Position numbers and translations under genes: made by a program. Under the pieces are notes generated by a model. It had not been told where the DNA came from and ran no database searches. It worked only from the letters and a program-made list of their open reading frames with translations. Positions 2,779 through 21,565 of a stretch of DNA of 64,000 bases are shown here, piece after piece. Source of the stretch: an uncultured Bacteroidota bacterium (GTDB lineage Bacteria; CLD3; SB21). Positions within the stretch are counted from its first letter, which is position 1. Each line of letters starts with the position of its first letter. The DNA lies in the NCBI GenBank assembly GCA_964478735.1, contig CAYZJB010000004.1, positions 15,480 through 79,479 of the forward strand, written 5' to 3'.

Positions 2779-4553
2779 TACTCCTGGAACATCTTTTGCC
2801 GTATTTGAAGCGTCACCGCTGGCTGTTGATCATCGGATTTGTATTCGTGATCCTTAAAAATCTTTTCCAATCCATGTCGCCGTTGGTCGTGCGGGAGGCG
2901 ATCGACAGCTTGTCGGAAACGCCCGTAGGATTTTTCTACGTTTACGTCGTCGAACCGATGTTTGGTTCCTCTGCCATCTCCGGGTTTGTCTTATGTTTTC
3001 TTTTTTTCGAATTGCTTCATGCGATGTTTTTGTACGGCATGCGCAGGACGCTCATCGTCACGTCACGCCGGGTCGAGTACGATTTTCGAAATGATTTTTT
3101 TGCCCATGTGCAGCGTCTTCATGCCGGTTTTTTCCAGACGACGAGGACGGGCGACCTGATGAGCCGGATGAACAGCGATCTGGGGGCCGTTCGCGACGTC
3201 CTGGGACCGGGCATTATGTACACGGCCAACACGATCGTATCGTTTCTCTACGTCGTACCGATGATGCTATCCATCAGTCCGTTGTTGACCGGGCTGGCGT
3301 TTTTACCGCTTCTGCTGTTGTCGTTTCTGATCCAGCGGCTATCGGGGCAAATCCACGTACGTTCTGAGCGTGTGCAGGAAAAACTCGCCGACATCAGTTC
3401 ACGCGCGCAGGAAAATTTCAGCGGAATCCGCGTCGTCATGAGCTTCGTTCGAGAAGCGTTTGAAATCGAGCGCTTCCGGGCCATGAACCGGGATTACGTC
3501 CGATTGAACATGGGACTCGTGCGGGTACGCGGCGTGATGATGGCGTCGGTCATTTTGACGATGGGGCTGAGCGTGGCCGTCCTGCTGGGATGGGGAGGGA
3601 AACTCGTGATGAGTGACGATATGTCGCTCGGTCAGTTCACCGCGTTCAGTTTTTATCTCGCCATTTTGATTTGGCCGATCATTGCGTTGGGCTGGGTGAT
3701 CAATATATTCCAACGGGGTTCGGCGTCCATGAAGCGCATCGTGGAAATTCTGCAAACGGAACCGCTCATCACGGATGCATCGGCGCATCCGCTGCATCCG
3801 GCCATTCGCGGGCAAATTGAATTTCGAAACCTCACGTTCAGTTACGGCGATCGACCGCCCGTGCTTCACGGCATATCGCTGCGAATCGACGCGGGGATGA
3901 CGTTGGCAATCGTCGGTGCAACGGGCAGCGGAAAAACGACACTGGTCAGCCTGATCCCGAGGATTTACGATGCATCGCCGGGCATGGTGCTGCTTGACGG
4001 GCAAAACATCGAATGCTACCCGTTGAATGTCTTGCGCGGATCGATCGGCATGGTTCCGCAGGATACGTTCTTATTTTCCGACACGATTCTTAATAATCTC
4101 CTTTTCGGCATCGATGGGGCAGATGCGAAAACGGGCCTGTGGGCGTCGGACATTGCCCAGTTGACTGAAGCGGTCCAGAGTTTCCCGGACGGCTACGGTA
4201 CGATGATCGGAGAACGCGGCATTACGTTATCCGGAGGGCAGAAACAGCGGCTGGCTATCGCACGGGCCGTTGCGAAGGAACCCCGGATTCTCATTTTAGA
4301 CGATGCCCTGTCGAGCGTCGATACACGTACCGAAGAAGCGATACTGGTCCGAATGAAAGAACTGATGCGCGAGCGGACCTCCATTGTTGTCAGCCATCGT
4401 CTGCAGACGATCCAACACGCCGATCATATCGTTTTGCTTGCCGACGGACGGATTGCCGAACAGGGAACCCACACGGAATTGCTCGCCCACCGCGGTGCCT
4501 ATTTAAGATTGTACGATCGGCAACAAATTGAGCAGGAACTCGCCGAGACATGA
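2775..4553 (+). CDS. ABC exporter, fused permease/ATPase (MsbA/lipid-exporter type)
   Basis: 6-TM N-terminal half, Walker A GATGSGKTT, ABC signature LSGGQKQRLAIARA, Walker B ILILDDA; ATGA overlap with nadD. Confidence 0.85.
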   Translation: MILLEHLLPYLKRHRWLLIIGFVFVILKNLFQSMSPLVVREAIDSLSETPVGFFYVYVVEPMFGSSAISGFVLCFLFFELLHAMFLYGMRRTLIVTSRRVEYDFRNDFFAHVQRLHAGFFQTTRTGDLMSRMNSDLGAVRDVLGPGIMYTANTIVSFLYVVPMMLSISPLLTGLAFLPLLLLSFLIQRLSGQIHVRSERVQEKLADISSRAQENFSGIRVVMSFVREAFEIERFRAMNRDYVRLNMGLVRVRGVMMASVILTMGLSVAVLLGWGGKLVMSDDMSLGQFTAFSFYLAILIWPIIALGWVINIFQRGSASMKRIVEILQTEPLITDASAHPLHPAIRGQIEFRNLTFSYGDRPPVLHGISLRIDAGMTLAIVGATGSGKTTLVSLIPRIYDASPGMVLLDGQNIECYPLNVLRGSIGMVPQDTFLFSDTILNNLLFGIDGADAKTGLWASDIAQLTEAVQSFPDGYGTMIGERGITLSGGQKQRLAIARAVAKEPRILILDDALSSVDTRTEEAILVRMKELMRERTSIVVSHRLQTIQHADHIVLLADGRIAEQGTHTELLAHRGAYLRLYDRQQIEQELAET

Positions 4554-4557
4554 AGCG

Positions 4558-5348
4558 ATGGCTTCCGTTCTGATGGTCGGATTCTCTGTCGTCGCCCAGG
4601 AGCCCCTGCCGTTGGAAACGGTGCCGTCCGATGCAGGGATCTCGTTGCATCTCCTCTATGCCGCTCATCAAGATCGTCAGGGTCTGATGTGGTTTGGCAC
4701 GATGCACGGTTTGATTCGGTACGACGGCGTGCGATATCGCGTTTTTCGTCATGATCCATCCTGTCGATCAGCCACGACGACATCGTATTGATCCATGAAG
4801 GTTCCGATGGATATCTCTGGATCGGAACGTTCGGCGGCGGAATCAACCGGTTGGATTCACGAACATCTGAATTGCTCCGATTTCCTAACCCTCCCGGCCG
4901 GTACTGTATGGGACATCGAGGGCGATGGTTCGGGACATCTGTGGCTTGCGACCGGGCATCCATTCTCAGGCTCACCGTTCATGAAGACGATGCCACCGTA
5001 TTCAAGGCGCTTTGCGCGGGTGCGAGCGGTTATCTGATCAAAACATCCGAACCGGCAAAAATTATCGCATCGATCCGTGACCTTCATGCCGGAGGAGCGC
5101 CCATGTCGCCCTCCATCGCTCGAATGGTCGTTCGCAGTTTTCAGAAACCGGTGCAGCACCATCTCACCGTTCGCGAAAAAGAAATTTTGGATTACCTATG
5201 CAGTGGGCATTCCTATCGTTCGATTGCCCATGCGTTGACCATCAGCAAGGATACGGTACACGCCCACTTAAAGAACATTTATCGTAAGCTCGAAGTCAAC
5301 TCCATGTCGGAGGCGGTTCTGAAGGCCATTCGGGATCGAATTGTTTAA
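4558..5348 (+). pseudogene. decayed chimera: N-terminal signal peptide + two-component-regulator beta-propeller repeats (sensor kinase-like) joined to C-terminal half of a LuxR-family response regulator; at least 2 frameshifts
   Basis: propeller repeat motifs (GLIRYDG, DGYLWIGTFGGGINRLD, GSGHLWLATG) lie in three different frames; tail VHEDDATVFKALCAGASGYLIK...LTVREKEILDYL...NIYRKLEV parallels the intact regulator at 8596-9243. Confidence 0.6.
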
Positions 5349-5444
5349 GACGCATTCCCCTTTTGGGGAAGAAGAAGCGTTCCTCGCGGAACGTTTACGC
5401 TTGGGAAAGACAAAATGTTTCGGTTTTAAAGAAAAACTACCTTC

Positions 5445-5467
5445 ACGGGTAATCTCACCCGTTTTTC
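5445..5467 (+). terminator. rho-independent terminator-like hairpin
   Basis: ACGGGT-aatctc-ACCCGT followed by TTTTT. Confidence 0.45.
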
Positions 5468-5654
5468 ACGTCACCACTCTCCAAAAAACATCCCCATTCA
5501 GGGAATTGTTTCACCTTCTCGATTAGCATAGACTACCGTAGGATCCAAAACGTTCAGGCGACGCCTGTTGACGAGCGACTCCAGAGTTTATGCTGTTTAT
5601 TCTGATAATCATGATGCCGTGTGGTCGTCGATGGATCGTCTGTTCGTATAACTT

Positions 5655-8594
5655 TTGGGAAATCATTTTTTGAACGCATTCATTTTTTTACGCTCCCTTT
5701 GTATTGCCGCTTCCCTTCAAGCGCAAAAATTTGTCCAGTTTACCGGATCGACGCCCATGACGCCGCATCGGATGATTCAAGACCGTGCCGGCTACATCTG
5801 GATGGCGTCCTATCGGGGTTTGAATCGATATGACGGCCATACGTTCAAAACGTTCGAACATGCCGTATATGATTCGACGTCCCTTTCCCACGAGATCGTC
5901 AATGATCTTCTGGAAGACAACGATGGACAACTGTGGATTGCGACCGAAGATGGCATTGACCGCTACGTTTCACGGACAGAATCTTTTGAACACATTCGTT
6001 TTCAAAACAGCAGCCTGAGGCCCAATAACGTTCGACGGTTATTTCAAACTCGGGACGGTCGTTACTGGGCGGCCACGCTTTTTTCGGTTTTTCAATTTGA
6101 TCCGCGAAAAGGTGCGGTGTCCCATTACCCGGGGTTTGATCGACTCGGCAAAGGAGTTGTTCGTCAATTTGTCGAATGGAATCGACACGTGTGGCTTCTG
6201 ACCATGCGAGGGCAATTGTATCGTCACGATCCCGTTTCAAAAAGTTTTCACCTTATCGATGTATCGGAAGATTGGATCGGGCGCATCGTGATCGATCTGG
6301 AAAATAATCTCTGGATCCTATCCTCCCGCACGGTCATCAAAATGAATCCGACCGGCATCGTATCGGCGCGTTATCAGGTCGATCATGCGTTACGCGACAG
6401 AGAAATTCTGGACGCCTTAATCGTCGACAATGGGATCTGGATAGGTACCGACGACGGCCTTTTCCATTTCGATACGTCGGGCGGGCACATACGATCGATA
6501 CAAGACTATATGGACAGGGATTATCTTGGCGGTCGTCGATCCATCGTATCGCTGTTGAGGGATCGCGAGGAAACCGTGTGGGCGTCGATACAGAGCAGCG
6601 GGCTTTACCGGTACAGTCCTTTCCGTCCGGATTTTCGCATCGTGCGCCATGATCCGGAGCGTCGTCGTTCACTCGGTTCCAATATGGTATTTCGAATTTA
6701 CGAAGACTCTGATTCGATTTTATGGATCGTAACCTCCGGCCGCGAGATCAATAAAATCGATACCGACGGCTCCATTACTCGAATCAAATCGAATGGCTTC
6801 GGAGTCCGGTCGTTTGCCGATGTGGGAGACGGGTCGCTCTGGATAGGCAAGTTGCGAGGATTGGAGCGAATTCACAGACTAACCGGAAAATCGATACGGC
6901 TGCAAAAAGAATTAGAAGTTTTTCAAGACGTTGCCGTCACCGAGATGCTGTCGTTGGATCAACAAAGCTGGCTATTTGGAACGTCCAGGGGTGTGGCGCA
7001 TGTGACCCGAACAAACGATGTCGTGAACGTCAAATGGTATCGTTCGAATTCGGACACGAACAGTCTTTCGTCCGACCTTATCTTTGCACTTTATCGCAGT
7101 CACCGCGGAGGGGCGTGGTTGGGAACGGAGGCCGGCCTCGACTATCTGGACTATCGTGCCGGCCGGGTGTTCAGGACCCATCAAGGGTCGGGTTTTCAAT
7201 CGGGGATGATGACCAGTTTGTGGGAAGATTCTCTCGGGCGTGTCTGGGTCGGAACATACGGTCATGGTTTGAAAGTTTATGATCCGTCCACCGGATCCTG
7301 GCGCAGTTATACCAAACGTGAAGGGCTGCCGAACGATCAGATTTACGGAATTCTTTCCGATGGCCGAGGCTGTTTGTGGTTAACGACGAACAACGGTCTG
7401 TGCCGTTTTTCCATCCATGACGAACAGATTCGCTGGTTTACTGAGGACGACGGGATTGCGGGAAATGAATTTAACGAAGGGGCGTGGTGCCGTCGACGAA
7501 ACGGTTCGATCGTGCTGGGTGGGCCCCGAGGCTTGACGTTATTCCATCCGGAACGAATCAAAACGAATCCCTATGTACCAGGAATTCAAATTGAAGGAAT
7601 GGAGATCAACGGCGCGTTTGTGCGTACCGGTTCTGATGAATGGAAGATGTCTTCGAGTGATAACTCATTTGAGATCATGTACACCGCGTTAAGTTTTCTG
7701 GTATCCAGCAAAAACCGTTTTCAATACCGGCTGCAAGGTTACGATGCCGGCTGGGTCGATGCCAAATACCGGCGCAGCGCTCCATACAGCAATGTTCCAC
7801 CGGGCCAATACACTTTTCAGGTCCGGGGGTCGAATAATGACGGCGTGTGGAATATGGCCGGTGCCAGCCTTCGGATAGCGGTTTTACCGGAAGTGTGGCA
7901 AACGTGGTGGTTCGTGGCACTGGTGTGCGTGGTCGTCGGAGCGTCGGTGTATGGCCTGGTCGCATTCCGAGTACGGCAACTCCTGGCGGTCGAGCGGCTT
8001 CGGACAACCATTGCCGCCGATCTTCATGATTCTGTCGGGAGCGGCCTGACCGATATTTCCATCCTTACGCAGTTGGTCGTCCAACAGCTTGACCAGCGCA
8101 CGCGGGGCCAGGTCGAGCAGCATCTCGTCAAAATTCACGAAACGACCGACGGCATAATCAAAAGTTTTGGCGACATCATCTGGATTGTCAATCCCAAACG
8201 GGACTCTCTCTCAGACCTTATCATCCGAACGAAGGATTTCTATCAGGACGTCTTGGCCCAGCTCGGTGTCCAGTTTACAACCAGCAATCTTAACGATTTA
8301 CAAAATCTGAAGCTAAAATTGGAGAAAAAGCAGCAATTGTACCTATTAATAAAGGAGGCCATCCATAATAGCTTGAAACACAGTCAATGTCATCAAATCC
8401 ATCTCGATGTCGCCGTGGATCGGACCGATTTCAAGATATCCATTACCGATGACGGACAGGGCTTCCGGTTAAACGGCGAGACGGGTAATGGTTTAAAAAA
8501 CATGCGGATGCGTGCCAGTCACTTGGGCGGTTCTCTTCTCATCCAGTCGTCACCCGGTGCGGGTACACGCGTCGAAATACAAGGAAAGGTATAA
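5655..8594 (+). CDS. sensor histidine kinase with periplasmic two-component-regulator propeller / Y_Y_Y domains, TM helix, HisKA_3 + HATPase_c
   Basis: signal peptide; repeated YxGxxxGLxxYDG / LWIGT propeller motifs; TM WWFVALVCVVVGASVYGLVAF; H-box ADLHDSVGSGLT; C-terminal ATPase G-boxes. Confidence 0.85.
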   Translation: MGNHFLNAFIFLRSLCIAASLQAQKFVQFTGSTPMTPHRMIQDRAGYIWMASYRGLNRYDGHTFKTFEHAVYDSTSLSHEIVNDLLEDNDGQLWIATEDGIDRYVSRTESFEHIRFQNSSLRPNNVRRLFQTRDGRYWAATLFSVFQFDPRKGAVSHYPGFDRLGKGVVRQFVEWNRHVWLLTMRGQLYRHDPVSKSFHLIDVSEDWIGRIVIDLENNLWILSSRTVIKMNPTGIVSARYQVDHALRDREILDALIVDNGIWIGTDDGLFHFDTSGGHIRSIQDYMDRDYLGGRRSIVSLLRDREETVWASIQSSGLYRYSPFRPDFRIVRHDPERRRSLGSNMVFRIYEDSDSILWIVTSGREINKIDTDGSITRIKSNGFGVRSFADVGDGSLWIGKLRGLERIHRLTGKSIRLQKELEVFQDVAVTEMLSLDQQSWLFGTSRGVAHVTRTNDVVNVKWYRSNSDTNSLSSDLIFALYRSHRGGAWLGTEAGLDYLDYRAGRVFRTHQGSGFQSGMMTSLWEDSLGRVWVGTYGHGLKVYDPSTGSWRSYTKREGLPNDQIYGILSDGRGCLWLTTNNGLCRFSIHDEQIRWFTEDDGIAGNEFNEGAWCRRRNGSIVLGGPRGLTLFHPERIKTNPYVPGIQIEGMEINGAFVRTGSDEWKMSSSDNSFEIMYTALSFLVSSKNRFQYRLQGYDAGWVDAKYRRSAPYSNVPPGQYTFQVRGSNNDGVWNMAGASLRIAVLPEVWQTWWFVALVCVVVGASVYGLVAFRVRQLLAVERLRTTIAADLHDSVGSGLTDISILTQLVVQQLDQRTRGQVEQHLVKIHETTDGIIKSFGDIIWIVNPKRDSLSDLIIRTKDFYQDVLAQLGVQFTTSNLNDLQNLKLKLEKKQQLYLLIKEAIHNSLKHSQCHQIHLDVAVDRTDFKISITDDGQGFRLNGETGNGLKNMRMRASHLGGSLLIQSSPGAGTRVEIQGKV

Positions 8595-8595
8595 A

Positions 8596-9243
8596 ATGAG
8601 AAATGCGATTCGAACGATCGTCGTTGACGACAATGAGACCGTCAGAGAAGGCTTGGCGGCTTTGATCAACGGAACAGAAGGCTACCAGTGCGTGGCGCAG
8701 TACAGCAATTGCGAAAGTCTGCTCAACCAGATCGATCGGTACTGGGCGGACGTCATTCTGATGGATATCCGGCTGCCCGGAATCAGCGGTATCGAAGGGG
8801 CAAAACGGATCAAACAACGTTTTCCTCAGGCCAATATTCTGATGTTGACCGTGTATGAGGAAAACGACCTGATCTTCGATGCCGTTTGCGCCGGTGCGTC
8901 CGGCTATCTGCTCAAGCGAACGCCTCCGGCACGACTTCTGGAAGCCGTCCGGGAAGCGTACGAAGGCGGTTCACCGATGAACTCACAAATCGCGCGGCGT
9001 CTCTTGACCATGATTCAAGAAAAAAGCGCAAGGCCGGAAATCGAATCCGGGGAGTCGTTCAACGAGCGGGAAAAGAACATCCTTGTCCGACTCGCCCAGG
9101 GACAAACGTATGAAGAGATTGCACAGGAACTATTTATCAGCGCCAATACGGTCAAATATTACGTTCGTAAAATTTATCAGAAACTGCACGCTTCATCCAA
9201 ATCGGAAGCGATATCAAAAGCGATACGAGCTGGAATGATTTAG
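8596..9243 (+). CDS. response regulator, NarL/LuxR family (REC + HTH_LuxR)
   Basis: IVVDDNETVREGL...ILMDIRLPGISG receiver motifs; C-terminal LuxR HTH EREKNILVRLAQGQTYEEIAQELFISANTVKYYVRKIY; ATG 2 nt after kinase stop. Confidence 0.9.
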   Translation: MRNAIRTIVVDDNETVREGLAALINGTEGYQCVAQYSNCESLLNQIDRYWADVILMDIRLPGISGIEGAKRIKQRFPQANILMLTVYEENDLIFDAVCAGASGYLLKRTPPARLLEAVREAYEGGSPMNSQIARRLLTMIQEKSARPEIESGESFNEREKNILVRLAQGQTYEEIAQELFISANTVKYYVRKIYQKLHASSKSEAISKAIRAGMI

Positions 9244-9269
9244 TTCTAGCCGACATCTCCTGATTCAAA

Positions 9270-9294
9270 AACCCCGAGCCCATCGGGGTTTTTG
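9270..9294 (+). terminator. rho-independent terminator
   Basis: CCCCGA-gccca-TCGGGG + TTTTTGTT immediately after regulator. Confidence 0.6.
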
Positions 9295-9601
9295 TTATTC
9301 GAAGCATCCAGCGGTTTTCAAAAGACTTAGAGTTCTCTGGACGGTCGAAAAATCTATCCATCGAGGTAAACTTTGACCCTTTTAAGGGAGTTCATAAGCG
9401 TCAGGACTACCCGGTCAGTTCATTGTTCAACGTAGCCACAGCGTCTACATTAACCGCGCGACACACATCATATCTCAACGATTCTGTTCGACATTGCTTT
9501 TTTCAGACCGTCCTGAAACGCAAAGTGAAAGGAGACTCGCCACGCCCATGCGACTAAATTTCCTTTTTTATCCACCGCATTCCTTAACCAAGGAGGACAG
9601 T

Positions 9602-12514
9602 ATGCGACATGTTACCAAACGCCTGCGAATGGCGCTGGTCATGGCCTGTTTTGTGCCGCAGTTGGTTCTGGCCGGCACGAACGGCAAAATAACCGGTCTT
9701 GTCAAAGACAAGGAAACCGGCGACGCCCTTCCGGGCGTGAACATCATTCTCGAAGGTACCACGATGGGCGCCGCGACGAATGCATCCGGAGAGTTTTTGA
9801 TCATCAATGTGCCGGCCGGTGTGTACACCGTGTCGACCAGCATGATCGGGTACTCGAAAGTGACGAAGCAAAATGTCCGCGTACTGCCGGACTTTACGAC
9901 GCGTTTGGACTTCGACTTGAGCGCGGCGGATCTGGGCGGCCAGGAAGTCGTCATCGTCGCGGAACGGCCCCTGATCCAGAAGGACCAAACGATGACCATG
10001 AGCGTCACGTCGTCCGATGAAATCAAAAATCTGCCGGTTCGCGGCTTCGCCAACGTGGCGACGCTGGGCGTTGGTATAACGATCGGCAACCTGAGATCGG
10101 TCGACGGCGGATTTGATAACATCAACGTCCGCGGCGGTCGTCCCAGTGAAACGGGCGTGATTGTTGACGGATTTTTGCAGAATAATCTATTGACGGGCGT
10201 TTCAACGGCTCAACTTCCCAGCGGTTCAGTCGAAGAACTGGTCGTCATCACCGGTGGATTCGATGCCGAGTTCGGACGCAATCAGTCCGGCATCATTCAA
10301 GTTACCTCCAAGGCGGGCGGACAGAGGTATTCGGGGTTTGCTGAATACGTCAATGATCGTCCGATGTTCGCTTTGAACAAAGACCATTATTTCGGATATG
10401 ACGTTTACAGCGCGGGTATCGGCGGTCCGTTGATCCCGGGAAATAATAACATACGGTTCTTCATTTCCGGCGAAGCCAAAGACATCACGGATGCCGATCC
10501 CAGTGTAACCGGATTCCCGGTCTATTCCCTGTCCGATGCAGGCACCCGTGGAGCCGCGGGAGAGTTGGACACGCTGATCTTCGAAACCACGTCGGATCCG
10601 ACCAAGGTCAAATTTGATAAAGGCGCTCGGCCAAAAAATTCCACCGGCTACGGCGTCAACAGTGATCGGGGCATCGCCCTGCAATCGAAACTGACTTACC
10701 AGGCGACTCCTTCACTGCGTTTTGACCTGAGCGGTAATTACACCAAAAACTGGCGGCGATTGTTTACTACGGATCAGACGGTCTCGTTGGATCTTGTCCA
10801 ACGCCGTCCACTGGAAAACATCAATGTTGGTATGATCGCGACGTACACACTGAACGAACGAAGTTTCTTTGACGTCGGCGCCAATTACTTCAAAAACAAG
10901 AGACGGATCTTGCATGACGTGTATGGATTCGATCCCAACACGTATATCGGGAAAGGAACGGGCACGACGGGATTCACGACCTATTACAATGACAATATCT
11001 TTAACGATATCGGATCCAGTGATCGAAACTTCCGCGAAGATCGCGACCAGTACTGGGCCGTGAAAGCGAATTACGTCAACCAGATTGACAAGCATAACCA
11101 GTTGAAAGCCGGTTTCGATTACTTCCGTCATGAAGTACGTTTCCTGAATATTCTTGATAACGACAATCCTTCCACGGGTTCGAACGACAATGTCGGATTC
11201 ATCGTCGATGAGAACAACAATCTGAAGGAAAACAATAAAGACGATCTGGATAATCGCCTGATCGGTCCGGCCAATCCGGTGTCGTTTGCTACGTACCTGC
11301 AGGATAAGTTGGAATACGAAGGATTGGTCGTTCGTGCAGGTTTAAGATATGATCTGTTCAATCCCGGGATCAAGCGGATCAAGAATCTGGCCGATCCTAC
11401 CGGACAAACGGATCCCGATCAAATTGGGGTTGTCGTGGGCGGCCGGAACCTTGCGGGATCTTTAGGTTCCGAGGATTATAAAGACGGCAAGACCCAGCAC
11501 AAGTTCAGTCCGCGATTCAGCGTGAGTTTCCCCGTTTCTGAGCGGACACAATTCCGAATGAGCTACGGCAAGTTCTTCCAGCAGCCCGATCTGCAGAACC
11601 TGTATGTCAGTCCGGACTTCCTAAGCCGGCAGTCGATTGCTCCTCCGTTTGCGACGGTGGTCGGCAATACCAATCTGGAGCCGGAACAAAGCACCCAGTA
11701 TGAAGTCGGCTTACGCCGTGCCATTTCCGATCATTTTGCCATCGATCTGAGCGCCTATTACAAGGACATCCAGGGTCTGACACAGGCCAACCTGGTCAAC
11801 TCGGTGCCCAATGCGTTGATCATGACGACCAACGACGACGAAGGTATTATTCAGGGCGTTACGATGGCGATGGATCTGCGGCGTGTCGGTAAGTTCCAGG
11901 GACGTGTGGCGTATACTCTCCAGTCCGCACGTGGAACCGGTTCCGGACAGGCGACGAATTTCCGTTCGGCCTGGCTCGGATTCCAGAGCGTCAAGCTTAG
12001 CGCACCGTTGAATTTCGATCAAACGCACACGATCAATGCGAATCTCGATATTCGGAATGCCAAAGGAGAAGGACCGGCGATCGGCGGATCTCGCCTTCTC
12101 GAAGAAGCGGGCTTGAACATACAGCTGAACACCGCGAGCGGCTTGCCGTATACGCCGTTTTCGATCGTTGCTTTCCAGACCCGAGGTGTTCCTCAGGGAC
12201 GGACGATAGGACGCCGGAACAGCCAGCGCCAGCCGTGGACGGTCCGTATCGATTTGAAAGCCGACAAGACCATCCATTTCAGCGAACGGTTCAATACGAA
12301 TATCTACGTTCAGGTGCTCAATGTGCTGAATCGCAAGAACGTGATCGCAGTTTATCCGTCTACCGGACGTGCGGATGACAATGGATTCCTGTCGACGGCT
12401 GCGGGTCAGGCACTGAGCGATCGTCAGAAACAGCAGTATGACGTCATCTACAATAACGGCTTGTTCTATGACACGCCGATGCAGGCGCGGCTTGGCGTCC
12501 TGTTTAATTTCTAA
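9602..12514 (+). CDS. TonB-dependent receptor with N-terminal carboxypeptidase-regulatory-like domain (Oar/SusC-type architecture)
   Basis: AAGGAGGA SD before ATG 9602; signal peptide; GxVxDxxTGxxLPGVNIIL...YSK CarbopepD_reg motif; plug region (NLPVRGF...NVRGG); long beta-barrel ending in aromatic (LFNF). Confidence 0.8.
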   Translation: MRHVTKRLRMALVMACFVPQLVLAGTNGKITGLVKDKETGDALPGVNIILEGTTMGAATNASGEFLIINVPAGVYTVSTSMIGYSKVTKQNVRVLPDFTTRLDFDLSAADLGGQEVVIVAERPLIQKDQTMTMSVTSSDEIKNLPVRGFANVATLGVGITIGNLRSVDGGFDNINVRGGRPSETGVIVDGFLQNNLLTGVSTAQLPSGSVEELVVITGGFDAEFGRNQSGIIQVTSKAGGQRYSGFAEYVNDRPMFALNKDHYFGYDVYSAGIGGPLIPGNNNIRFFISGEAKDITDADPSVTGFPVYSLSDAGTRGAAGELDTLIFETTSDPTKVKFDKGARPKNSTGYGVNSDRGIALQSKLTYQATPSLRFDLSGNYTKNWRRLFTTDQTVSLDLVQRRPLENINVGMIATYTLNERSFFDVGANYFKNKRRILHDVYGFDPNTYIGKGTGTTGFTTYYNDNIFNDIGSSDRNFREDRDQYWAVKANYVNQIDKHNQLKAGFDYFRHEVRFLNILDNDNPSTGSNDNVGFIVDENNNLKENNKDDLDNRLIGPANPVSFATYLQDKLEYEGLVVRAGLRYDLFNPGIKRIKNLADPTGQTDPDQIGVVVGGRNLAGSLGSEDYKDGKTQHKFSPRFSVSFPVSERTQFRMSYGKFFQQPDLQNLYVSPDFLSRQSIAPPFATVVGNTNLEPEQSTQYEVGLRRAISDHFAIDLSAYYKDIQGLTQANLVNSVPNALIMTTNDDEGIIQGVTMAMDLRRVGKFQGRVAYTLQSARGTGSGQATNFRSAWLGFQSVKLSAPLNFDQTHTINANLDIRNAKGEGPAIGGSRLLEEAGLNIQLNTASGLPYTPFSIVAFQTRGVPQGRTIGRRNSQRQPWTVRIDLKADKTIHFSERFNTNIYVQVLNVLNRKNVIAVYPSTGRADDNGFLSTAAGQALSDRQKQQYDVIYNNGLFYDTPMQARLGVLFNF

Positions 12515-12544
12515 TCGTACGGATCAATACTGGAGAATTTTGAC

Positions 12545-15500
12545 ATGAATAAAATCAAAAATACGCTGATCGTGGGCGCCCTTATCGGTGCTCTCGTATT
12601 CGCGTTCAGTGACTGGTCGACGGCGCGTGTAGACAAAAATACACGTCTCCGTGCCAAACTTCGCAAGGCGGACATCGTCGACATTGTCAATGTCGGGTAC
12701 AACAACTGGAATTACATCATGCGTAACCAGGGGTCCTATTTTTACGATGCTCCGAACGGAAACCCCGGGGGTGAATTCCCCCGGGGCTCCGGCAATACCA
12801 TCGTGTTTGCCGCCGGTGTGTATGTCGGAACGTTGAAAGACGGTGTACCCGTGGTCAGCGAAACGGAATTTGCTACCGAATTTCAACCTGGCCGTATTTC
12901 AAATTCCGATGTGCCTTTTGACGAATTGGAAGCCGAAGATCCGACTCGTGCCGATTTGCAAGTCTACCTGATCGATCGGTCTGCGTCCGGTTCGGATTAT
13001 GCCAACTGGCCGAGTGATGCGCCCAAAAATAGTTTGGGTCAACCTGCTCTAATTGCCGATGCCCAGACGTGGGCGGTATTCAACGATCTGGACATAACGC
13101 TGAGTCAGGAAGGGACGAGCATCAGTCCCGATCCGGGTTTGGGTCTGGAAATCGTTTTGGAATCCTTTGCTTTCAATGCCGGACCTCTGAGCAATGTTGT
13201 CTATTGTAAGTTTACGATCAAGAACGAGACGAATACCGATTATTCGGATTCGTATCTGGGTATGTGGATGGACGCCGATGTCGATGCGAATAATTCTACA
13301 AATGATATCGTCGGTATCGATACGGTACGGGGTTTGGGTTTTGTCTATAATTCGGACAATTCAGATTTTCCGGGTGCTGCCGGGTTTGACTTCTTACAGG
13401 GCCCGGTCGTCGATACGACCACCGTTGCTTCCAGTCTGGTTAACAAGTTCCGAAACAACAAAGTGACGCTGGTTTATGATCCTGCAGAGAACCGGTATAT
13501 TCCGACGACGTTGCCGGGGAATCAGATCTGGCTTGGCGCGACGGCTTTCAATACGTATGCAAATGGTACCGATCCGCAGAATAACGAAGAGCGGTACAAC
13601 CTGCTGGCCGGGCGTTTTACCGATGGAAATCCCAAAACCGGTACCGGCGCCTGCGACTATTACGCGTTTCGCGGCGATCCGATTACCCAACAGGGGAGTC
13701 CGGACGTCGGAGCCCCTCCGGGATCCGATCAGCGAATTTTGCACTGCGTCGGACCTTTTGTGATCGATGCCGGGTCGTCGCAGGAGGTATGGGTTGGAGT
13801 TGTCGGAGCGCAAGGAACGGATCGCCTGGATGCCATTCGGGTACTGCGCAATACGGATGATCAAGCTCAAATTACATTCGAAGCGGGTTTAATCGCGCCA
13901 GCTCCTCCCAATGTACCACAGATCAATGTTACAGGACTGGATGGCGCCGTGGCCATCACTTGGCAGAACAATGCGGAATATTCCGAAGATATCGCAGGTG
14001 AGATTCTGGAAATTGACCAGGCGCATGGCTATACCGCCGATTACAGAAAAAACGATTTCCAGGGATATCGTGTTTGGAAAAGCCGGACTGGAATTGTAGG
14101 CAGCTACACGGTACTTGCGGAATTCGATCTGGCGGATGGGATCACAACAGTGATCAATCAGGTCATCAATACGGCTGGAAATTTGGAGATTCGTGAAGAG
14201 CGTCTGGGAGATGACGTGGGTCTTCGCTATTCCTTCATTGATAACGATGTGGTGAACGGACAGGCCTACTTTTACTCCGTTACGGCTTATGATGCCCAAC
14301 CTTATATCGCGGGTCCCGGCGTATTCAGTCTTGGAACGACACAGACATTGATAAAGGGCGAAGCGACCGGTATCATTCTTTCCGATACCGAGCCGGTTGC
14401 GATTTGGGATCAAGGGGATATCTATCTTGACTCACTCGCGATGGTGAGCGATGCCACTTATGGTTCAAACGGTGGAACGCTTATCGGTGATACCGTTTAT
14501 GTTGAAGTCGATACACATACCGTCGGTAGCACGCCTCAACTGGCCATCCACGCCTTTGTTGCCACATCGGTCGAGCGAGAAGAGTTCAATTTCGATTTCA
14601 ACAGTCTTGCACCGGCATTCCGTGTGGAGGGAATCGAATCGCCGGATGACGTGTCGCTCGGGGATGGAGTTTCGACAAATGTGACATTCGGTTTCAGCGA
14701 CGGGCATGACGAAGCCAATATCTTCCGGCTTAAGGTCGTGGATATACAACAATACGATGGCTCGATTCCTGCACCTTCAGGACTTCCGATTTCGTTGGAA
14801 ACATCGCCGACGGCCAATGTAGTGTCCGTCATACCGATGAGTGCTCTGATTGGTCAGAATTTTGACGCCTCGGTGTCTGATGTTGTCCATACCGGGCCCA
14901 GCGACGGAGCGATAACAGTGGAAATTATCGATCCGACAAAAGTTCGAAGTGTAGACTACTCGCTGAGCTTTTTCACTATTCCGACGGACTGTACGGGGGC
15001 CCCGCTCCGGGGTGATGACTTCCTTCCGGCCAATGGAATTGCATATCGTATTCAGGTTGGTTCCAGCATTCTTACTCTCGACTCTCGTACGGACGATCCG
15101 AGAACCTATTATGATGTCAATGGAAACGATACGTTCAACGTTGGAATCGATGTTCGTCTCGATGACTCTAAGTTTGGAGTCGATCAGGCGGTTGTTGGCA
15201 TAACCGCTACTGAACAACCGGTCATCGTCGATGGAATGAAAATTACGGTTTTTGGACCCTCCAATGACGTGAAATTCTTCCAACTCATTGCAACGGCGGC
15301 AGGTACGCTGGCCGTTCCCGATATGGCTGCGTTCGCTTTCAATGGAAGCGGGTTCCCAACGATTGACGGTGGTGCGGCCGGAAATGATTATACGGCTCTT
15401 GGTGCGGGTGCTTTGAATGATCGACCCAACGTTCCGAATCTATTGACCACTGTAGCAGCCGCATCTGCCGCCAACGGTGGCAAATGGGGATTCCAAACGG

Positions 15501-16519
15501 GCGAAGTTGGTGGAGGGTTTACTTTCACCTTTTTTAAGAGCCGTGTTTTCAGAAACGATAACTTCAATCGGTTCGTTCCATCTGATTTTGAGATGCGATT
15601 TACGGCAGCGGGTGGACAAGGAGACTGGATATTTGACGGACTGGGGCAAGCTGCTGTTCCATTTGAACTGTGGAACATCGGTGTGAATACCCCAAATGAT
15701 CCATCCGATGATTATCGGATGTATCCTCGCGTTCTGAATTCAACCGTTGTACCTTCGGCGGTTTATGATATCAGTACCATCGATCACACGATTTCAGGTG
15801 GTGACAACGATCCCGAAATGGATTGGGTGTATTGGATGAACCCCGATGATCGCTCGCCCGGTCAGACCGGTTATAATGCTTCCGTTGCAGCCAACGGCGA
15901 GGCCTTACAGGCACCCAATGGTGAGGTCATGGCGCGGACCACTTTGATCAATTTCAATGGCGGCAGCGTCTCGGATGGATCATTCCCAGCAAATGTCAAT
16001 CAGGTTATTCCGGCAACGGGAACGGTATTCCGTATTATCAGTACGAAACCGAATACCGTGTTCGATTCTTATGCTTTCTCGGGAACGGCGAGGACAACGT
16101 CAGCGTCTAAAGCCCAGATGAAGGCATCTCTGAAAGACATCCGTGCCGTTCCGAATCCCTACTACGGTCAGTCGTTGTATCAGACGCAGGGACTCTTCGG
16201 CAAAGTGTTGAAGTTCACGCATCTGCCGGGTAGCTGTACCATCAAGATCTTCAACGTTGCAGGTGACCTGGTGACGACACTGGTGCATAACGCGTCGTCG
16301 ACGAATGGACGGTTGAATACCAACCCGCTCGATATCAATGCGACGGCGGCTCCAAAGGAAACCTCGGAAGAGTGGTGGGATTTGACGAATGCCGACGGCA
16401 AGTTCGTCGCGAGCGGCATGTATATCGCATTGATCGACGTTCCCGGCGTGGGTAAGAAAACGGTGAAGTTTGCCGTGATTCAGGAAGCGAACATCACCAA
16501 CGGACCGGAAATTCGATAA
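12545..16519 (+). CDS. very large secreted protein (1324 aa) with T9SS-type C-terminal sorting domain; catalytic domain not recognised
   Basis: signal peptide; C-terminal ~90 aa VPNPYYGQSLYQT...KIFNVAGDLVTTLV...SGMYIALIDVPGVGKKTVKFAVI resembles T9SS CTD; GGAG SD. Confidence 0.7.
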   Translation: MNKIKNTLIVGALIGALVFAFSDWSTARVDKNTRLRAKLRKADIVDIVNVGYNNWNYIMRNQGSYFYDAPNGNPGGEFPRGSGNTIVFAAGVYVGTLKDGVPVVSETEFATEFQPGRISNSDVPFDELEAEDPTRADLQVYLIDRSASGSDYANWPSDAPKNSLGQPALIADAQTWAVFNDLDITLSQEGTSISPDPGLGLEIVLESFAFNAGPLSNVVYCKFTIKNETNTDYSDSYLGMWMDADVDANNSTNDIVGIDTVRGLGFVYNSDNSDFPGAAGFDFLQGPVVDTTTVASSLVNKFRNNKVTLVYDPAENRYIPTTLPGNQIWLGATAFNTYANGTDPQNNEERYNLLAGRFTDGNPKTGTGACDYYAFRGDPITQQGSPDVGAPPGSDQRILHCVGPFVIDAGSSQEVWVGVVGAQGTDRLDAIRVLRNTDDQAQITFEAGLIAPAPPNVPQINVTGLDGAVAITWQNNAEYSEDIAGEILEIDQAHGYTADYRKNDFQGYRVWKSRTGIVGSYTVLAEFDLADGITTVINQVINTAGNLEIREERLGDDVGLRYSFIDNDVVNGQAYFYSVTAYDAQPYIAGPGVFSLGTTQTLIKGEATGIILSDTEPVAIWDQGDIYLDSLAMVSDATYGSNGGTLIGDTVYVEVDTHTVGSTPQLAIHAFVATSVEREEFNFDFNSLAPAFRVEGIESPDDVSLGDGVSTNVTFGFSDGHDEANIFRLKVVDIQQYDGSIPAPSGLPISLETSPTANVVSVIPMSALIGQNFDASVSDVVHTGPSDGAITVEIIDPTKVRSVDYSLSFFTIPTDCTGAPLRGDDFLPANGIAYRIQVGSSILTLDSRTDDPRTYYDVNGNDTFNVGIDVRLDDSKFGVDQAVVGITATEQPVIVDGMKITVFGPSNDVKFFQLIATAAGTLAVPDMAAFAFNGSGFPTIDGGAAGNDYTALGAGALNDRPNVPNLLTTVAAASAANGGKWGFQTGEVGGGFTFTFFKSRVFRNDNFNRFVPSDFEMRFTAAGGQGDWIFDGLGQAAVPFELWNIGVNTPNDPSDDYRMYPRVLNSTVVPSAVYDISTIDHTISGGDNDPEMDWVYWMNPDDRSPGQTGYNASVAANGEALQAPNGEVMARTTLINFNGGSVSDGSFPANVNQVIPATGTVFRIISTKPNTVFDSYAFSGTARTTSASKAQMKASLKDIRAVPNPYYGQSLYQTQGLFGKVLKFTHLPGSCTIKIFNVAGDLVTTLVHNASSTNGRLNTNPLDINATAAPKETSEEWWDLTNADGKFVASGMYIALIDVPGVGKKTVKFAVIQEANITNGPEIR

Positions 16520-16575
16520 CGAAGAACTCGGCGGGGACGTCATGAGGCGTTCCCGTCAAACTGGAGAATTGTCAC

Positions 16576-17616
16576 ATGAATAAAATATCCAAAGTGCTCG
16601 TTGGGCTAGCCATGCTGGCAGCGAGCGTAAGCGCCGGAGAGGAAAAGCGAGGTGAAGCGGGATTTGCTTTCCTACGGGTTCCCATCGGCGCCCGTGAAAC
16701 CGCCCTCGGTACGACCGGATTGACGCATGCGTCCGGAGCCAATGCATTGTACTGGAATCCGGCAAATGCGGCGGGTCTGGATCGTCCGTCGGTATCGGTG
16801 TCTTATTTGAATCACTTTGCCGGAATCAGTTCGAATTACTTTGCGGCCACGGTTCCGATGAGCGACGTCGGGACGTTCGGTTTCAGCCTTAACTATCTCA
16901 GCTATGGCGATATCGAACGTACGACAGAGGCCAGTCCGGATGGTAATCTCGGTTCGTACTCTCCGTTTGAGATTGCGGTCGGCTTCAGCTACGCCAAACA
17001 GATTACCGATCGTGTCAGCGGCGGTTTGACCGTGAAGTTCGTCTCGTCCAAGATCGATGCGGTCCAGGCGTCGGGTGTGGCGTTCGATTTCGGCTTCAGT
17101 TACAACACCGGTTTCCGCGGTTTGAAGCTCGGTTTTGTCGCGAGCAACATCGGTCCACAGGCGAAATATGACGGCGACGGTTTGTTGCGTCAGGTCAGTT
17201 TGCCCAATCCAAACGCGACCGGTGCGGGATCTCAAGGATTCCTTCAGTTCGAGTCGGAACCGTTCGAACTCCCGGCCTCGGTCAATTTCGGCGCAACGAT
17301 GGATCTGTACCGGAACGAACAGAATTCCGTTTCGGGTATTCTCGAGCAAAACATCAACAGTTTTGCCGTCAGCCGGACCAATCTGGGCCTGGAATACGGA
17401 TTCAAGAACATGTTCTTCGCCCGCGGCGGTTACACCAGCGCGTTGAAGCGTGACCGCGACTACAGGACGGGGAAGGCGTCGATGGCGGGATTAACCCTGG
17501 GCGCCGGGGTCGATTACAAATTCAATGATGCCTTCGGTGTGACCATCGATTACGGTTGGATGGATCTCGGTGAACTGAACGCGACGCACCGGTTCACGAT
17601 CGGTGTGAAGTTCTGA
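16576..17616 (+). CDS. PorV/PorQ-family-like outer membrane beta-barrel (T9SS cargo shuttle-like)
   Basis: signal peptide; N-terminal GARETALGTTG...ALYWNPANAAGL resembles GARAxAMGGA...WNPAGLA motif of PorV/FadL-like family; alternating beta-strand pattern; C-terminal F. Confidence 0.55.
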   Translation: MNKISKVLVGLAMLAASVSAGEEKRGEAGFAFLRVPIGARETALGTTGLTHASGANALYWNPANAAGLDRPSVSVSYLNHFAGISSNYFAATVPMSDVGTFGFSLNYLSYGDIERTTEASPDGNLGSYSPFEIAVGFSYAKQITDRVSGGLTVKFVSSKIDAVQASGVAFDFGFSYNTGFRGLKLGFVASNIGPQAKYDGDGLLRQVSLPNPNATGAGSQGFLQFESEPFELPASVNFGATMDLYRNEQNSVSGILEQNINSFAVSRTNLGLEYGFKNMFFARGGYTSALKRDRDYRTGKASMAGLTLGAGVDYKFNDAFGVTIDYGWMDLGELNATHRFTIGVKF

Positions 17617-17637
17617 TCTCCTTTCTCTGTGTGATTG

Positions 17638-17674
17638 AAGGCCGCCCGTGCGCTCTGCAGGGCGGCCTTTTTTA
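17638..17674 (+). terminator. rho-independent terminator
   Basis: AAGGCCGCCC-gtgcgctctgca-GGGCGGCCTT + TTTTTA after porV-like gene. Confidence 0.7.
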
Positions 17675-17854
17675 TTCCTCAGCGTATTTAGGTATGATCT
17701 CTCGCAAAGGGCGCAAAGCAGGCTAGGCTGTGGCTAAAAGTATTTGAGAATATCCTTGCGTGCTTTGCGAGAGTCATTTTTTTTGAAATGAGAAGAAAAA
17801 CCTACCCGTCCATCTTTCCGCTTCGTAAATTCTCCGCCTGAAACGATATCTGGT

Positions 17855-20800
17855 TTGTATAATTTTGCCATGATCATATTGCTATATATCCGCCATCTGG
17901 TCGTTTTGATGCTCTTTGTGTCAGTGATTTACGGGCAAACGATCACGGTGACAAGTTCCGCCGACAGCGGCCCGGGTACCCTGCGGGACGCCATTCAGCT
18001 GGCCAATGGAAGCCTGACGGTCGATACCATTCGATTTGATACGCTCTCGATGGGTTCAGCGGTTATTTCAATCACTACGGCCCTTCCGATACTGACGGAC
18101 GATTCGATTGTGATTGCGGGTCCGGTTTGGCCTGGCGGTGAACCGGCCGTCACGATTGACGGTGGCGCGCTGACGTCAGGAGAAAATACGATCACGATTT
18201 CAGGTTCGTTCTGTGAGGTTCAGTCCCTGACGCTGATCAACAATCAATCGACGGGTGCGGCGGTTGAAATCACGGGCGGCGTTTCCAATCGTGTGACGGG
18301 AAACACCATCGGACTCGACCGGATCGGACAGAATGCAATGCCCAATAGTGTCGGAGTCCTGATCACCGGAGGACAAGCCCACCGGATCGGCGATTCGTCG
18401 GCCGCCGGAGGGAATATTATTTCCGGTAACCTCGAGGACGGCATCCGGATCGTAGCGTCCCACGACAACGTCGTTTTGAACAATCGGATTGGCGTCAACC
18501 GTTTCGGAACTGCGGCCGGAAACGCCTCTTCAGGGATCCTGATCAATAGCGGCTCAAAGGCAACGCGGATCGGTAGCGGCACGCCATCCGGTCGAAATAT
18601 CATTGGCGGAAACCTTACGGGTATCCGGATTGCCGATAATGGTTCCGATTCTACAGCAATCGACGGTAATTGGATTGGCGTTCATTTTTCTTCATCTGTC
18701 GCAAACGGTACGGGGATCCGCATTGAAAACGGCGCCTCATCGACCCGGATCGGCCAATGGGGAAATGTCACGCCGAATACCATTTCCGGTAATACGGGAG
18801 ATGGAATTTCAATCGTTGGAAGTCTGACGCGCGGAACCACGATTCGAGGCAATCGCATCGGAACGGATACGACAGGCTCAACGGGGATCGGAAACGCCGG
18901 ATCGGGTATTTTCATCCAGGATGCGCGCCGGTCGACGATCGGGGGAGTCGCTGTCGGCGAATCCAACGTGATCTCGGGTAACGGATTCGACGGTATCCTT
19001 TTGGACGGGACGGATTCGACATTTGTCTACGGCAATCGGATCGGTGTGGATGGGTCCGGCATGCTGGCAATTCCCAATATGAACAACGGGATCGAGCTTC
19101 AGTCGGCTGCCCGCAATACCACGATTGGCGGGCGTTCAGCGGGACAGGGGAATGTCATTTCCGGAAATGACGCCATCGGCATTCTGATCGTTGACGAAGG
19201 GACGTCGCGAGCATCGATCGTTGGAAATCTCATCGGGGTTGCGCTCGACAGTGTCGGCGACGTCGGTAACGGCGAGTCCGGCGTACATTTGAGTTTTGGC
19301 GCGTCCCGCGACTCGGTGAATTACAACCTGATCGCTTACAACGGAGTGGGCATTGCGTATGAAGACGCAACCACCGACAGCAACGTTCACTTTGCCAATT
19401 CCATTTTCCGTAACGGACAGGGAATCGATATTGCTTTAAATGCACAGGGCGATATTATTCCGCCCGCCATTGCCTACGTATCGCTGGATACGACCGTTCA
19501 TGGTACGGCCGATCCGTTTGCCTTCGTACAGATTTATGCCGATTCCGTGGATCAGGGGCGATTTTTCCTCGATACGGCGCGAGCCGATGCCGCGGGTAAC
19601 TGGTCTCGAAAAGTTCAATTGCCGGGTGGAGCTCGAGTCCTGGCCATACAGGAAGCCGGCATGAGTTCCTCGGAATTTTCAACGCCGTTTGAGCCCTTCA
19701 TTGGTCCGGTGGGAGTTTCACTTCCGACGCTCTCGTTTGGAAACGTGTTCCTCGGTCAGACCGACACACAGTCGGTCCGAATATTTTCACTTTCGGGCGA
19801 CGTGATTTTGACCGATCAGTTTCTGAGCAGCCTCGGAGAGTTTACCGTACTGACGACTTTTGCTTTCCCGGAAACACTCGCCGTCGGCGACACGCTGACC
19901 ATCGAGATTGCCTTTACACCGGCAGATTTCGGGACACGTAACAGCAGTTGGCATATCCTCAACAATTCATCGATTCCTGTGTTTGGATTGCCATTGACGG
20001 GTTACGGTCAGGCCGGCAGTCTGATCGCAATGGATACGGTCGTTTTTCCCGAAACCATCGTCGGCGATTCTTCCTCGGTGACGATCAGCGTCAAAGCTGA
20101 AGATGCTCCGGTACAATTGACCGAAGCCGTGACACAAACTCCCGTATTCAGCATCGTGTCTCAGCCGACTCTGCCGTTTACCCTTCTAAACGGTGTGGTC
20201 GACTCGGTCTTATTCGAGATAAAATACCGCCCGTCTTTAAGTACGCTGCAGGGCGATACCTTGATCATCCAGAGCAATTCACCGGCCGGCGACCGGTACG
20301 TCCTTTTGCAAGGGCACGGTTTGCCCAACCAATCGCCCGGTTCGTTTCCATTGCTCCCTCTCCCGGGCGGTTCGACAACCAACAATCGGCGCCCAACGTT
20401 TTTATGGCGTCGCTCCGTAGATGCCGACGGCGATACCGTGATCTATACGCTTCAAATCAGTACGACGGCAAACTTTGCCTCGATCACACAAAGCGTGCAA
20501 ACGCCGGATACGGTTGTTGTTCTTCCGCTCCCACTGGATACGCTGCAGAGCTACTACTGGCGCGTTTTCGCGCGCGACGATAAAAACGGCGAAACCGTGA
20601 GCAATGTCGGTTTCTTTACGGTCGATGCCGTGGCACCGCGAGGATCGTTGAGGATCCTGCCCAGCCCGATATTGCAAACGTCCGCGGCGATATACGTTTA
20701 TTCCAGCGAACCTCTGGAAAGTGCATCGACGAGGATCAGGTTTTGGGACGTCGAACAACAACTTCTCGACAGTATCAATGTTCAATTGACGGAAATCCAA

Positions 20801-21565
20801 CCGTCGCTGTTCCAAACGTCTTATTCGGTATCGGAATCCGGTACACTGGAAATTGCGGCGACGTTGGAGGACTCTGCTGGAAATCAGACCGTACCGTCGA
20901 GAGTTTTTACCTTTGCGCTGCTGCCAAAGACCCGTGTGCTGGTCAGTCATGACCGGCGTGTGACTACGTCCTTGTCGCGGAGCCGAGGCATTTTGTGGTT
21001 GGGTGTCGAACCGGCGGAGAGGGCGGCCTTACCGATTTCCACGACTTATGCGATCGACGTGGGCGGGACGGTCGAGTCGGGTAATCCTCTTGAACTTTCG
21101 ATCGATTATTCGACGCTGGACGTCGGTGCGCTGGGTTGGACAGACGATTCAAAAATCGGGATTTATCGAATGGAATCCGGAACGCCGGTATACATCGGTG
21201 GGGCCGGCAGAGCCGGGCGTATCGCTTCTCAAATCGATCGCCTCGGACGATACGTGCTGGGCTATGATCCAAACCGACAAAGTTTGCCCCGTGAATTGCA
21301 TCTCGACAATTATCCCAATCCCTTCAATCCGATAACCTCGATACGGGTTGCGTTGCCGTTTTCATCGGACGTCCGCGTCGAGATATACAATCTTATCGGC
21401 CAACGGGTTAAAACGCTATATCGTGGCTTTCTTCCGGCCGGCCGCCATACCATGACGTGGAATGGTACCAGCGAAACAAGTAATCGTGTAGCCACGGGCG
21501 TTTATTTGTGCCGCGTTTCATTTGCCGGTCAGGTGACAACGAGAAAAATGCTGCTCGTCAAATAG
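17855..21565 (+). CDS. large secreted right-handed parallel beta-helix repeat protein (1236 aa) with T9SS C-terminal sorting domain
   Basis: signal peptide; >15 repeats of GNxIGxN / ISGNxxDGI beta-helix type; C-terminus NYPNPFNPITSIRVALP...VEIYNLIGQRVKTL...GVYLCRV canonical T9SS type-A CTD. Confidence 0.8.
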   Translation: MYNFAMIILLYIRHLVVLMLFVSVIYGQTITVTSSADSGPGTLRDAIQLANGSLTVDTIRFDTLSMGSAVISITTALPILTDDSIVIAGPVWPGGEPAVTIDGGALTSGENTITISGSFCEVQSLTLINNQSTGAAVEITGGVSNRVTGNTIGLDRIGQNAMPNSVGVLITGGQAHRIGDSSAAGGNIISGNLEDGIRIVASHDNVVLNNRIGVNRFGTAAGNASSGILINSGSKATRIGSGTPSGRNIIGGNLTGIRIADNGSDSTAIDGNWIGVHFSSSVANGTGIRIENGASSTRIGQWGNVTPNTISGNTGDGISIVGSLTRGTTIRGNRIGTDTTGSTGIGNAGSGIFIQDARRSTIGGVAVGESNVISGNGFDGILLDGTDSTFVYGNRIGVDGSGMLAIPNMNNGIELQSAARNTTIGGRSAGQGNVISGNDAIGILIVDEGTSRASIVGNLIGVALDSVGDVGNGESGVHLSFGASRDSVNYNLIAYNGVGIAYEDATTDSNVHFANSIFRNGQGIDIALNAQGDIIPPAIAYVSLDTTVHGTADPFAFVQIYADSVDQGRFFLDTARADAAGNWSRKVQLPGGARVLAIQEAGMSSSEFSTPFEPFIGPVGVSLPTLSFGNVFLGQTDTQSVRIFSLSGDVILTDQFLSSLGEFTVLTTFAFPETLAVGDTLTIEIAFTPADFGTRNSSWHILNNSSIPVFGLPLTGYGQAGSLIAMDTVVFPETIVGDSSSVTISVKAEDAPVQLTEAVTQTPVFSIVSQPTLPFTLLNGVVDSVLFEIKYRPSLSTLQGDTLIIQSNSPAGDRYVLLQGHGLPNQSPGSFPLLPLPGGSTTNNRRPTFLWRRSVDADGDTVIYTLQISTTANFASITQSVQTPDTVVVLPLPLDTLQSYYWRVFARDDKNGETVSNVGFFTVDAVAPRGSLRILPSPILQTSAAIYVYSSEPLESASTRIRFWDVEQQLLDSINVQLTEIQPSLFQTSYSVSESGTLEIAATLEDSAGNQTVPSRVFTFALLPKTRVLVSHDRRVTTSLSRSRGILWLGVEPAERAALPISTTYAIDVGGTVESGNPLELSIDYSTLDVGALGWTDDSKIGIYRMESGTPVYIGGAGRAGRIASQIDRLGRYVLGYDPNRQSLPRELHLDNYPNPFNPITSIRVALPFSSDVRVEIYNLIGQRVKTLYRGFLPAGRHTMTWNGTSETSNRVATGVYLCRVSFAGQVTTRKMLLVK

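Follow-up and report, generated by a model that had tools for sequence, protein, structure and literature searches.

Within the window, the whole stretch of 64,000 nucleotides that was analysed, a propeller-type sensor kinase and a LuxR-type response regulator precede a triad of genes, which encode a TonB-dependent receptor, a giant protein (giant1) and a barrel of the PorV/PorQ family. We propose, with a probability of about 0.45, that this two-component system is specific to the lineage, probably senses a glycan, and has been recruited to control the triad. Among the glycan sensors of Bacteroidota, the propeller/Y_Y_Y proteins are understood best, until now only as parts of hybrid systems and, lately, of the one-component regulator BguR. 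Here, in an uncultured bacterium of the FCB group, apparently of the candidate phylum CLD3, the same sensor is wired as a plain two-protein phosphorelay with a LuxR output. If the link to the triad is true, PUL-style sense-and-import logic reaches beyond Bacteroidota. The locus would then also be an entry point to the triad, whose giant1 family almost always sits between a TonB receptor and a PorV-like barrel and whose arrangement would join type IX secretion (T9SS) to TonB-dependent uptake. If the link is false, the two-component system is an unremarkable representative of a sensor family that is very common.

Sensor kinase and response regulator

5655..8594, + strand: sensor histidine kinase, 979 aa (Pfam, PDB sequence matches, transmembrane helix, motifs in the translation, homologues)
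8596..9243, + strand: NarL/LuxR-type response regulator, 215 aa (Pfam, NCBIfam, translation, 215-aa calls in the related contigs L001, L002, L003 and L007)
4553..5348, + strand: deletion remnant of TCS-1, a paralogous upstream two-component system (three-frame translation, alignment to L001)

In the kinase, a signal peptide is followed by tandem periplasmic Reg_prop propellers (98 bits), a Y_Y_Y domain (60 bits), one transmembrane helix, HisKA_3 (PF07730; 32 bits, cut-off 24) and HATPase_c (PF02518; 39.8 bits, cut-off 26.4); the two sensor domains score above their Pfam cut-offs as well. The N-terminus is signal-like, the sole hydrophobic helix comprises residues 750-775 approximately, and the candidate start codons are TTG 5655 and TTG 5673. 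The H-box AADLHDS, the N-box HNSLKHS and the G-boxes DDGQGF (G1) and GNGLKNM (G2) were identified by eye in the translation and are all intact. The polypeptide stops after HATPase_c and contains neither a receiver nor an AraC domain. The regulator consists of Response_reg (PF00072, 92.6 bits) and GerE (PF00196, 60.3 bits). Its ATG at 8596 lies one base past the kinase stop and agrees with the gene calls in the related contigs; the start at 8512 (ORF 8512-9243) is that of a mechanical ORF only and was rejected. Judged by these domains, the two proteins form a classical, non-hybrid two-component system. All NCBIfam equivalogs for two-component proteins scored far below their cut-offs (e.g. NarQ with 68.5 bits compared to 553).

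A comparison with PDB sequences related the sensor part to 4A2L (E 1.7e-80, four stretches), which is the periplasmic domain of BT4663 from a Bacteroides hybrid system, to 3V9F (E 3e-52) and to 3OTT. The kinase core matches the structures of DesK and VraS. Hybrid-system sensors of this fold bind oligosaccharides. The preliminary description, which had located a propeller/Y_Y_Y kinase and a LuxR regulator at 5655-9243 as separate proteins and had likened the sensor to the oligosaccharide-binding domains of hybrid systems, is thus confirmed in its domains, its coordinates and this kinship. The same architecture is found in more than 4,600 homologues among the matches listed, three of which are close.

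What remains of TCS-1 is a frameshifted fusion of the first propeller blades of the sensor kinase with the final two thirds of the LuxR-type regulator. Three-frame translation yields blades like those of Reg_prop and, after them, the C-terminal part of a receiver and GerE. Positions 4401-4888 of the window align to 6035-6530 of L001, and positions 4956-5541 to 9372-9959. The gap between these two alignments indicates that about 2.8 kb are missing from TCS-1 in the window. L001 retains an intact TCS-1 (987 and 205 aa) and L003 retains the intact TCS-1 regulator.

Promoters, terminators and transcription units

5349..5654, + strand: region 5' of the kinase gene; blocks at about 5430-5550 are conserved (alignment with L001, L002 and L003)
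9266..9294, + strand: intrinsic-terminator-like hairpin after the regulator gene (perfect 12-nt arms, then a T run; kept in relatives)
9297..9601, + strand: conserved promoter/leader of the receptor operon (alignments, repeats, RNAalifold)
17638..17669, + strand: intrinsic-terminator-like hairpin after the PorV-like gene (GGCCGCCC...GGGCGGCC, then a T run)

The downstream genes had been regarded as a single T9SS cargo operon. This has to be revised, because one terminator follows the regulator gene and another, also present in L007, the PorV-like gene, and they split the region. Three units are predicted: the two-component system, receptor-giant1-PorV-like, and giant2. Given the terminator after the regulator gene, any coupling of the two-component system to the receptor would not be brought about by co-transcription.

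ACTACC boxes are located at 5436 and 5532 in the conserved blocks 5' of the kinase gene, and at 9406 in the receptor leader. These three boxes are retained in all orthologous promoters. They make up half of the six copies in the window, a total that is not unusual (8.7 expected), and the box was picked out post hoc. A variant, CCTACCC, lies 5' of giant2 at 17801.

The receptor leader further contains a direct repeat of two units, each about 45 nt long (9397-9439 and 9440-9486), and predicted hairpins (9526-9568 and 9580-9597) that pair Shine-Dalgarno sequences. Its nucleotide identity to L001 is 86-89%, compared to 44-79% for the sensor-coding DNA. A structured-RNA leader was considered and rejected: RNAalifold, applied to five sequences, revealed only G-U-compatible one-sided changes and no compensatory pair, and the adjoining 5' coding DNA of the receptor (91-98% identical) is conserved at least as well as the leader. 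For these two reasons no RNA element is claimed. No Rfam family reached its gathering threshold anywhere in the window, and the matches in 9150-9700 were all at chance level. A scan for sigma-70 promoters found fewer sites than in shuffled sequences and is therefore uninformative for this phylum. Exact matches of a 22-mer from the leader in metagenomes numbered zero.

Receptor, giant proteins and barrel

9602..12514, + strand: TonB-dependent receptor with CarboxypepD_reg, plug and barrel (Pfam, NCBIfam, sequence)
12545..16519, + strand: giant1, 1324 aa
16576..17616, + strand: PorV/PorQ-family outer-membrane barrel, 346 aa (NF033709, PorQ and PorV models, 6H3I)
17870..21565, + strand: giant2, 1231 aa from ATG 17870

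The two-component system lies directly 5' of these genes. The receptor and the two giants correspond to what had been described, both giants possess T9SS-type C-terminal domains, and a PorV-family barrel is additionally present. The domain matches are strong and not due to chance.

The mechanical ORF of the receptor begins at 9494, with in-frame ATGs at 9548, 9602 and 9629. The protein reaches 49.2 bits with the SusC/RagA model TIGR04056 (cut-off 368), which covers only the N-terminal extension and the plug; it does not belong to the SusC/RagA family. Its weak NCBIfam likenesses are to haem and siderophore-type receptors. A sequence search yielded no close solved structure for its barrel and none that is SusC-like. 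The six ORFs that lie from 9494 to 23173 gave no match to a Pfam SusD family. Pfam scans of 35 window ORFs, the two giants included, found no GH, PL or CE family domain. Judged by its gene content, the locus would not be a classical sugar-utilisation locus.

Giant1 consists of a signal peptide that lacks a lipobox cysteine, a conserved N-module of about 600 aa, a middle part of variable beta-sandwiches and a T9SS C-terminal domain that resembles type A and has an insertion of about 17 aa. The N-module comprises a galactose-mutarotase-like supersandwich and a subsequent beta-sandwich domain, which is read as FN3-like. The tail is sub-threshold with the single T9SS type A HMMs TIGR04183 and PF18962 (E 0.06); in a profile-profile comparison (hhalign), the tail of the family matches type A domains with a probability of 96% (E 3.4e-9). 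No solved structure was matched by sequence. About 9,400 cluster representatives make up the family, for which Pfam and NCBIfam have no model. That giant1 catalyses glycoside hydrolysis or phosphorolysis is not supported, since its model is mostly beta-strand and has no (alpha/alpha)6 domain. In most of the enzymes it matches, the supersandwich is a non-catalytic domain, and the aligned lengths of about 200-350 residues suggest that the alignment of these enzymes is limited to this domain. An active site may be located on the sandwich itself.

The barrel exceeds the cut-off of the family model NF033709 (199.7 bits, cut-off 90) and falls below all equivalog cut-offs (PorQ 140.8 bits compared to 220, PorV 89 to 250, PorV2 71 to 325). 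It therefore is a member of the family that belongs to an unnamed subgroup. By these scores it is nearer to PorQ than to PorV; PorV from F. johnsoniae (6H3I) is matched with E 3.8e-12.

Giant2 contains a signal peptide, a right-handed beta-helix of about 500 aa, choice-of-anchor D/Ig-like domains and a T9SS type A C-terminal domain (TIGR04183, 37.3 bits, cut-off 23). A 1269-aa call for giant2 in L007 reads through the terminator hairpin, and its start was therefore rejected. The helix had been described as typical of polysaccharide lyases. The right-handed parallel beta-helix fold of pectate-lyase-like enzymes is indeed present, and in the fold comparison polysaccharide lyases and epimerases rank first; NosD and adhesins, however, score nearly equal. 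The family models that recognise the helix are only the generic NosD, Beta_helix and para_beta_helix. Pfam gave no polysaccharide lyase family match, no catalytic motif was recognised, and an AlgE-type epimerase was rejected because the DPH motif is absent. No solved structure was matched by sequence. The expected CAZyme or lyase homology of the giants is hence not seen by Pfam at the level of sequence and discernible at the level of fold, where the beta-helix of giant2 and the supersandwich of giant1 resemble carbohydrate-active proteins.

Gene order in related genomes

The order kinase-regulator-receptor is kept in four related contigs (L001, L002, L003 and L007), one of which, L007, additionally retains giant1, the PorV-like barrel and giant2. 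Genomes were scanned with an alignment of the giant1 N-module (A4), the full giant1 alignment (A1) being too diverse. Among the 39 genome loci with enough flank, which come from many FCB phyla, 32 contain the triad of receptor, giant1-family protein and PorV/PorQ-like barrel; a propeller sensor is nearby in five and a NarL-type regulator in one. Outside the clade of the window, triads usually lack an adjacent sensor and are never accompanied by giant2. A propeller sensor adjoins the triad only in this clade and in some other MAGs that are apparently CLD3. For example, the order is giant1, PorV-like barrel, kinase and LuxR regulator in L023, and receptor, giant1 and a Reg_prop/Y_Y_Y-SpoIIE protein in L014. 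A scan of metagenomes with the receptor protein added two triads (L091 and L092), which have neither the two-component system nor the leader.

The conserved unit of the locus is the triad. It is widespread, and no description of it was found: a literature search returned nothing specific on the triad or on PorV-like paralogues beside TonB receptors, and no specific account of characterised Reg_prop/HisKA_3/LuxR systems. Tentatively, the triad might be an undescribed nutrient-capture module of the FCB superphylum, in which a surface protein exported by the T9SS retains its C-terminal domain and docks on a dedicated PorQ-like barrel beside a TonB-dependent transporter, where it would play a SusD-like role. 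In CLD3, this module would repeatedly have come under HTCS-type propeller sensors with varied outputs. Both the window and L023 have a HisKA_3/LuxR output; that of L014 is a SpoIIE phosphatase.

Proposed control of the triad and alternatives

In the proposed mechanism, a ligand that reaches the periplasm would alter the sensor dimer; this ligand would most likely be an oligosaccharide that enters through the adjacent TonB-dependent receptor. The HisKA_3 core of the DesK/NarX type would then phosphorylate the regulator encoded one base downstream, which would switch on its own promoter and the receptor-giant1-barrel unit, and possibly also the promoter of giant2. The triad would act as a capture-and-import unit: giant1, once exported by the T9SS, would retain its C-terminal domain, dock with it on the cognate barrel and so remain at the cell surface, where its supersandwich module would bind substrate for the receptor. 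Cognate PorV-like barrels have been proposed to retain C-terminal domains (PMC10202324).

The kinship of the sensor to BT4663 and other hybrid-system sensors, the complete catalytic motifs and the one-base junction argue for this mechanism, as do the order kept in relatives, the juxtapositions in L023 and L014, the ACTACC boxes, the fold matches of giant2, the precedent of BguR and the proposal of cognate-barrel retention. Against it stand the missing SusC/SusD pair, the missing GH, PL and CE domains in the ORFs scanned, the terminator after the regulator gene, the rarity of sensors at triads, L091 and L092 without sensor and regulator, the mostly non-catalytic role of the supersandwich, the near-equal scores of NosD and adhesins, the absent DPH motif, the post hoc choice of the box and its ordinary number of copies in the window. 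PUL-like control logic, as postulated in the preliminary description, is accordingly retained in part: sensor homology and placement agree with it, whereas a SusC/RagA receptor, SusD and any GH, PL or CE domain are lacking.

It is doubtful that the genes are merely neighbours, so that the two-component system would be one of the many propeller-sensor systems of the lineage, with other targets, and the triad and giant2 would be under unrelated control. The scarcity of sensors and regulators beside triads, in the 39 loci as well as in L091 and L092, favours this explanation, as do the terminators that divide the three units and the very common architecture of the sensor. Furthermore, the paralogous TCS-1 was deleted in the strain of the window while the rest was kept, which suggests a rapid turnover of such systems. 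However, the gene order persists in four relatives despite the divergence of the sensor DNA (44-79% identity), L014 and L023 place the same sensor type beside giant1-family loci in different ways, and a conserved box is common to the kinase and receptor promoters.

A non-glycan substrate is unlikely. The locus would then be devoted to regulated uptake and surface functions for peptides, proteins or another envelope-derived signal, which the propeller sensor would read, and giant2 would be an adhesin or a surface-layer protein and not an enzyme. The missing CAZyme family matches and the weak likeness of the receptor to haem and siderophore-type receptors are consistent with such a role. The window moreover encodes an M1 peptidase and two AbgT transporters and no glycoside hydrolase; the relatives of giant2 are generic beta-strand-repeat proteins, including CSLREA-domain proteins, and its closest distant homologue (46% identity) stands alone after ATP synthase genes. 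Yet the ligands known or inferred for the sensor fold are glycans (oligosaccharides for hybrid systems, beta-glucan for BguR, anionic LPS for the related propellers of PorZ), and the folds of both giants occur predominantly in carbohydrate-active proteins.

It is very unlikely that the sensor monitors the state of the T9SS or of the surface, e.g. surface glycan or LPS precursors in a PorZ-like manner, and tunes surface cargo: although its propellers match the PorZ model (57.7 bits, sub-threshold) and all candidates for regulation are outer-membrane or T9SS-related, the PorZ match reflects generic Reg_prop similarity, no T9SS core genes were found nearby, and the full-length likeness to hybrid-system sensors is far stronger.

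Comparison with known systems

Bacteroides hybrid systems carry HisKA, HATPase, receiver and an AraC-type DNA-binding domain on one polypeptide. With such a system (BT4663; PDB 4A2L/4A2M), the window shares homologous tandem propellers, a membrane-proximal Y_Y_Y domain, a single transmembrane helix and regulator genes beside a TonB-dependent receptor gene. It differs in its HisKA_3 kinase of the DesK/NarX type, in the separate NarL/LuxR regulator that replaces a fused receiver, and in a putative target locus that has no SusC/SusD pair.

BguR is a one-component, membrane-spanning regulator of laminarin PULs in marine Bacteroidota, whose propeller/Y_Y_Y sensor and GerE output activate a glycan locus; its ligand is inferred to be beta-glucan (10.64898/2026.01.10.698779). 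Common to both are two propellers with Y_Y_Y, one transmembrane helix and a GerE/LuxR output, which in BguR activates an adjacent uptake locus. BguR has no phosphorelay, whereas the window encodes a HisKA_3/HATPase kinase and a receiver in front of GerE, distributed over two proteins. The targets of BguR are SusCD-type beta-glucan PULs with CAZymes; the locus of the window has neither.

NarX/NarL and DesK/DesR resemble the two-component system in the HisKA_3 H-box, HATPase_c, the regulator of receiver and GerE, and the adjacent genes. Their sensors, in contrast, are unrelated: a four-helix bundle or a membrane-thickness sensor instead of propellers. SusC/SusD PULs likewise combine a sensor/regulator with a CarboxypepD_reg TonB receptor, followed by a large surface protein that possibly presents substrate. 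In the window, a SusC/RagA match, SusD, a lipoprotein partner and recognised CAZymes are absent, and the partner protein has a T9SS C-terminal domain and a PorV/PorQ-like barrel of its own.

The cargo-barrel pairs of the T9SS (PorZ-PorQ; SprB-SprF and other type B cargo with PorP/SprF) also place a sorting-domain protein beside a dedicated PorV-like barrel. Here the barrel scores best with PorQ, and the tail of giant1 weakly matches the C-terminus of PorZ. Unlike PorQ, PorV and PorV2, however, the barrel falls below the respective equivalog cut-offs, and the retention of the C-terminal domain is putative. A TonB-dependent receptor always accompanies the giant1-barrel pair, a feature that the known pairs lack.

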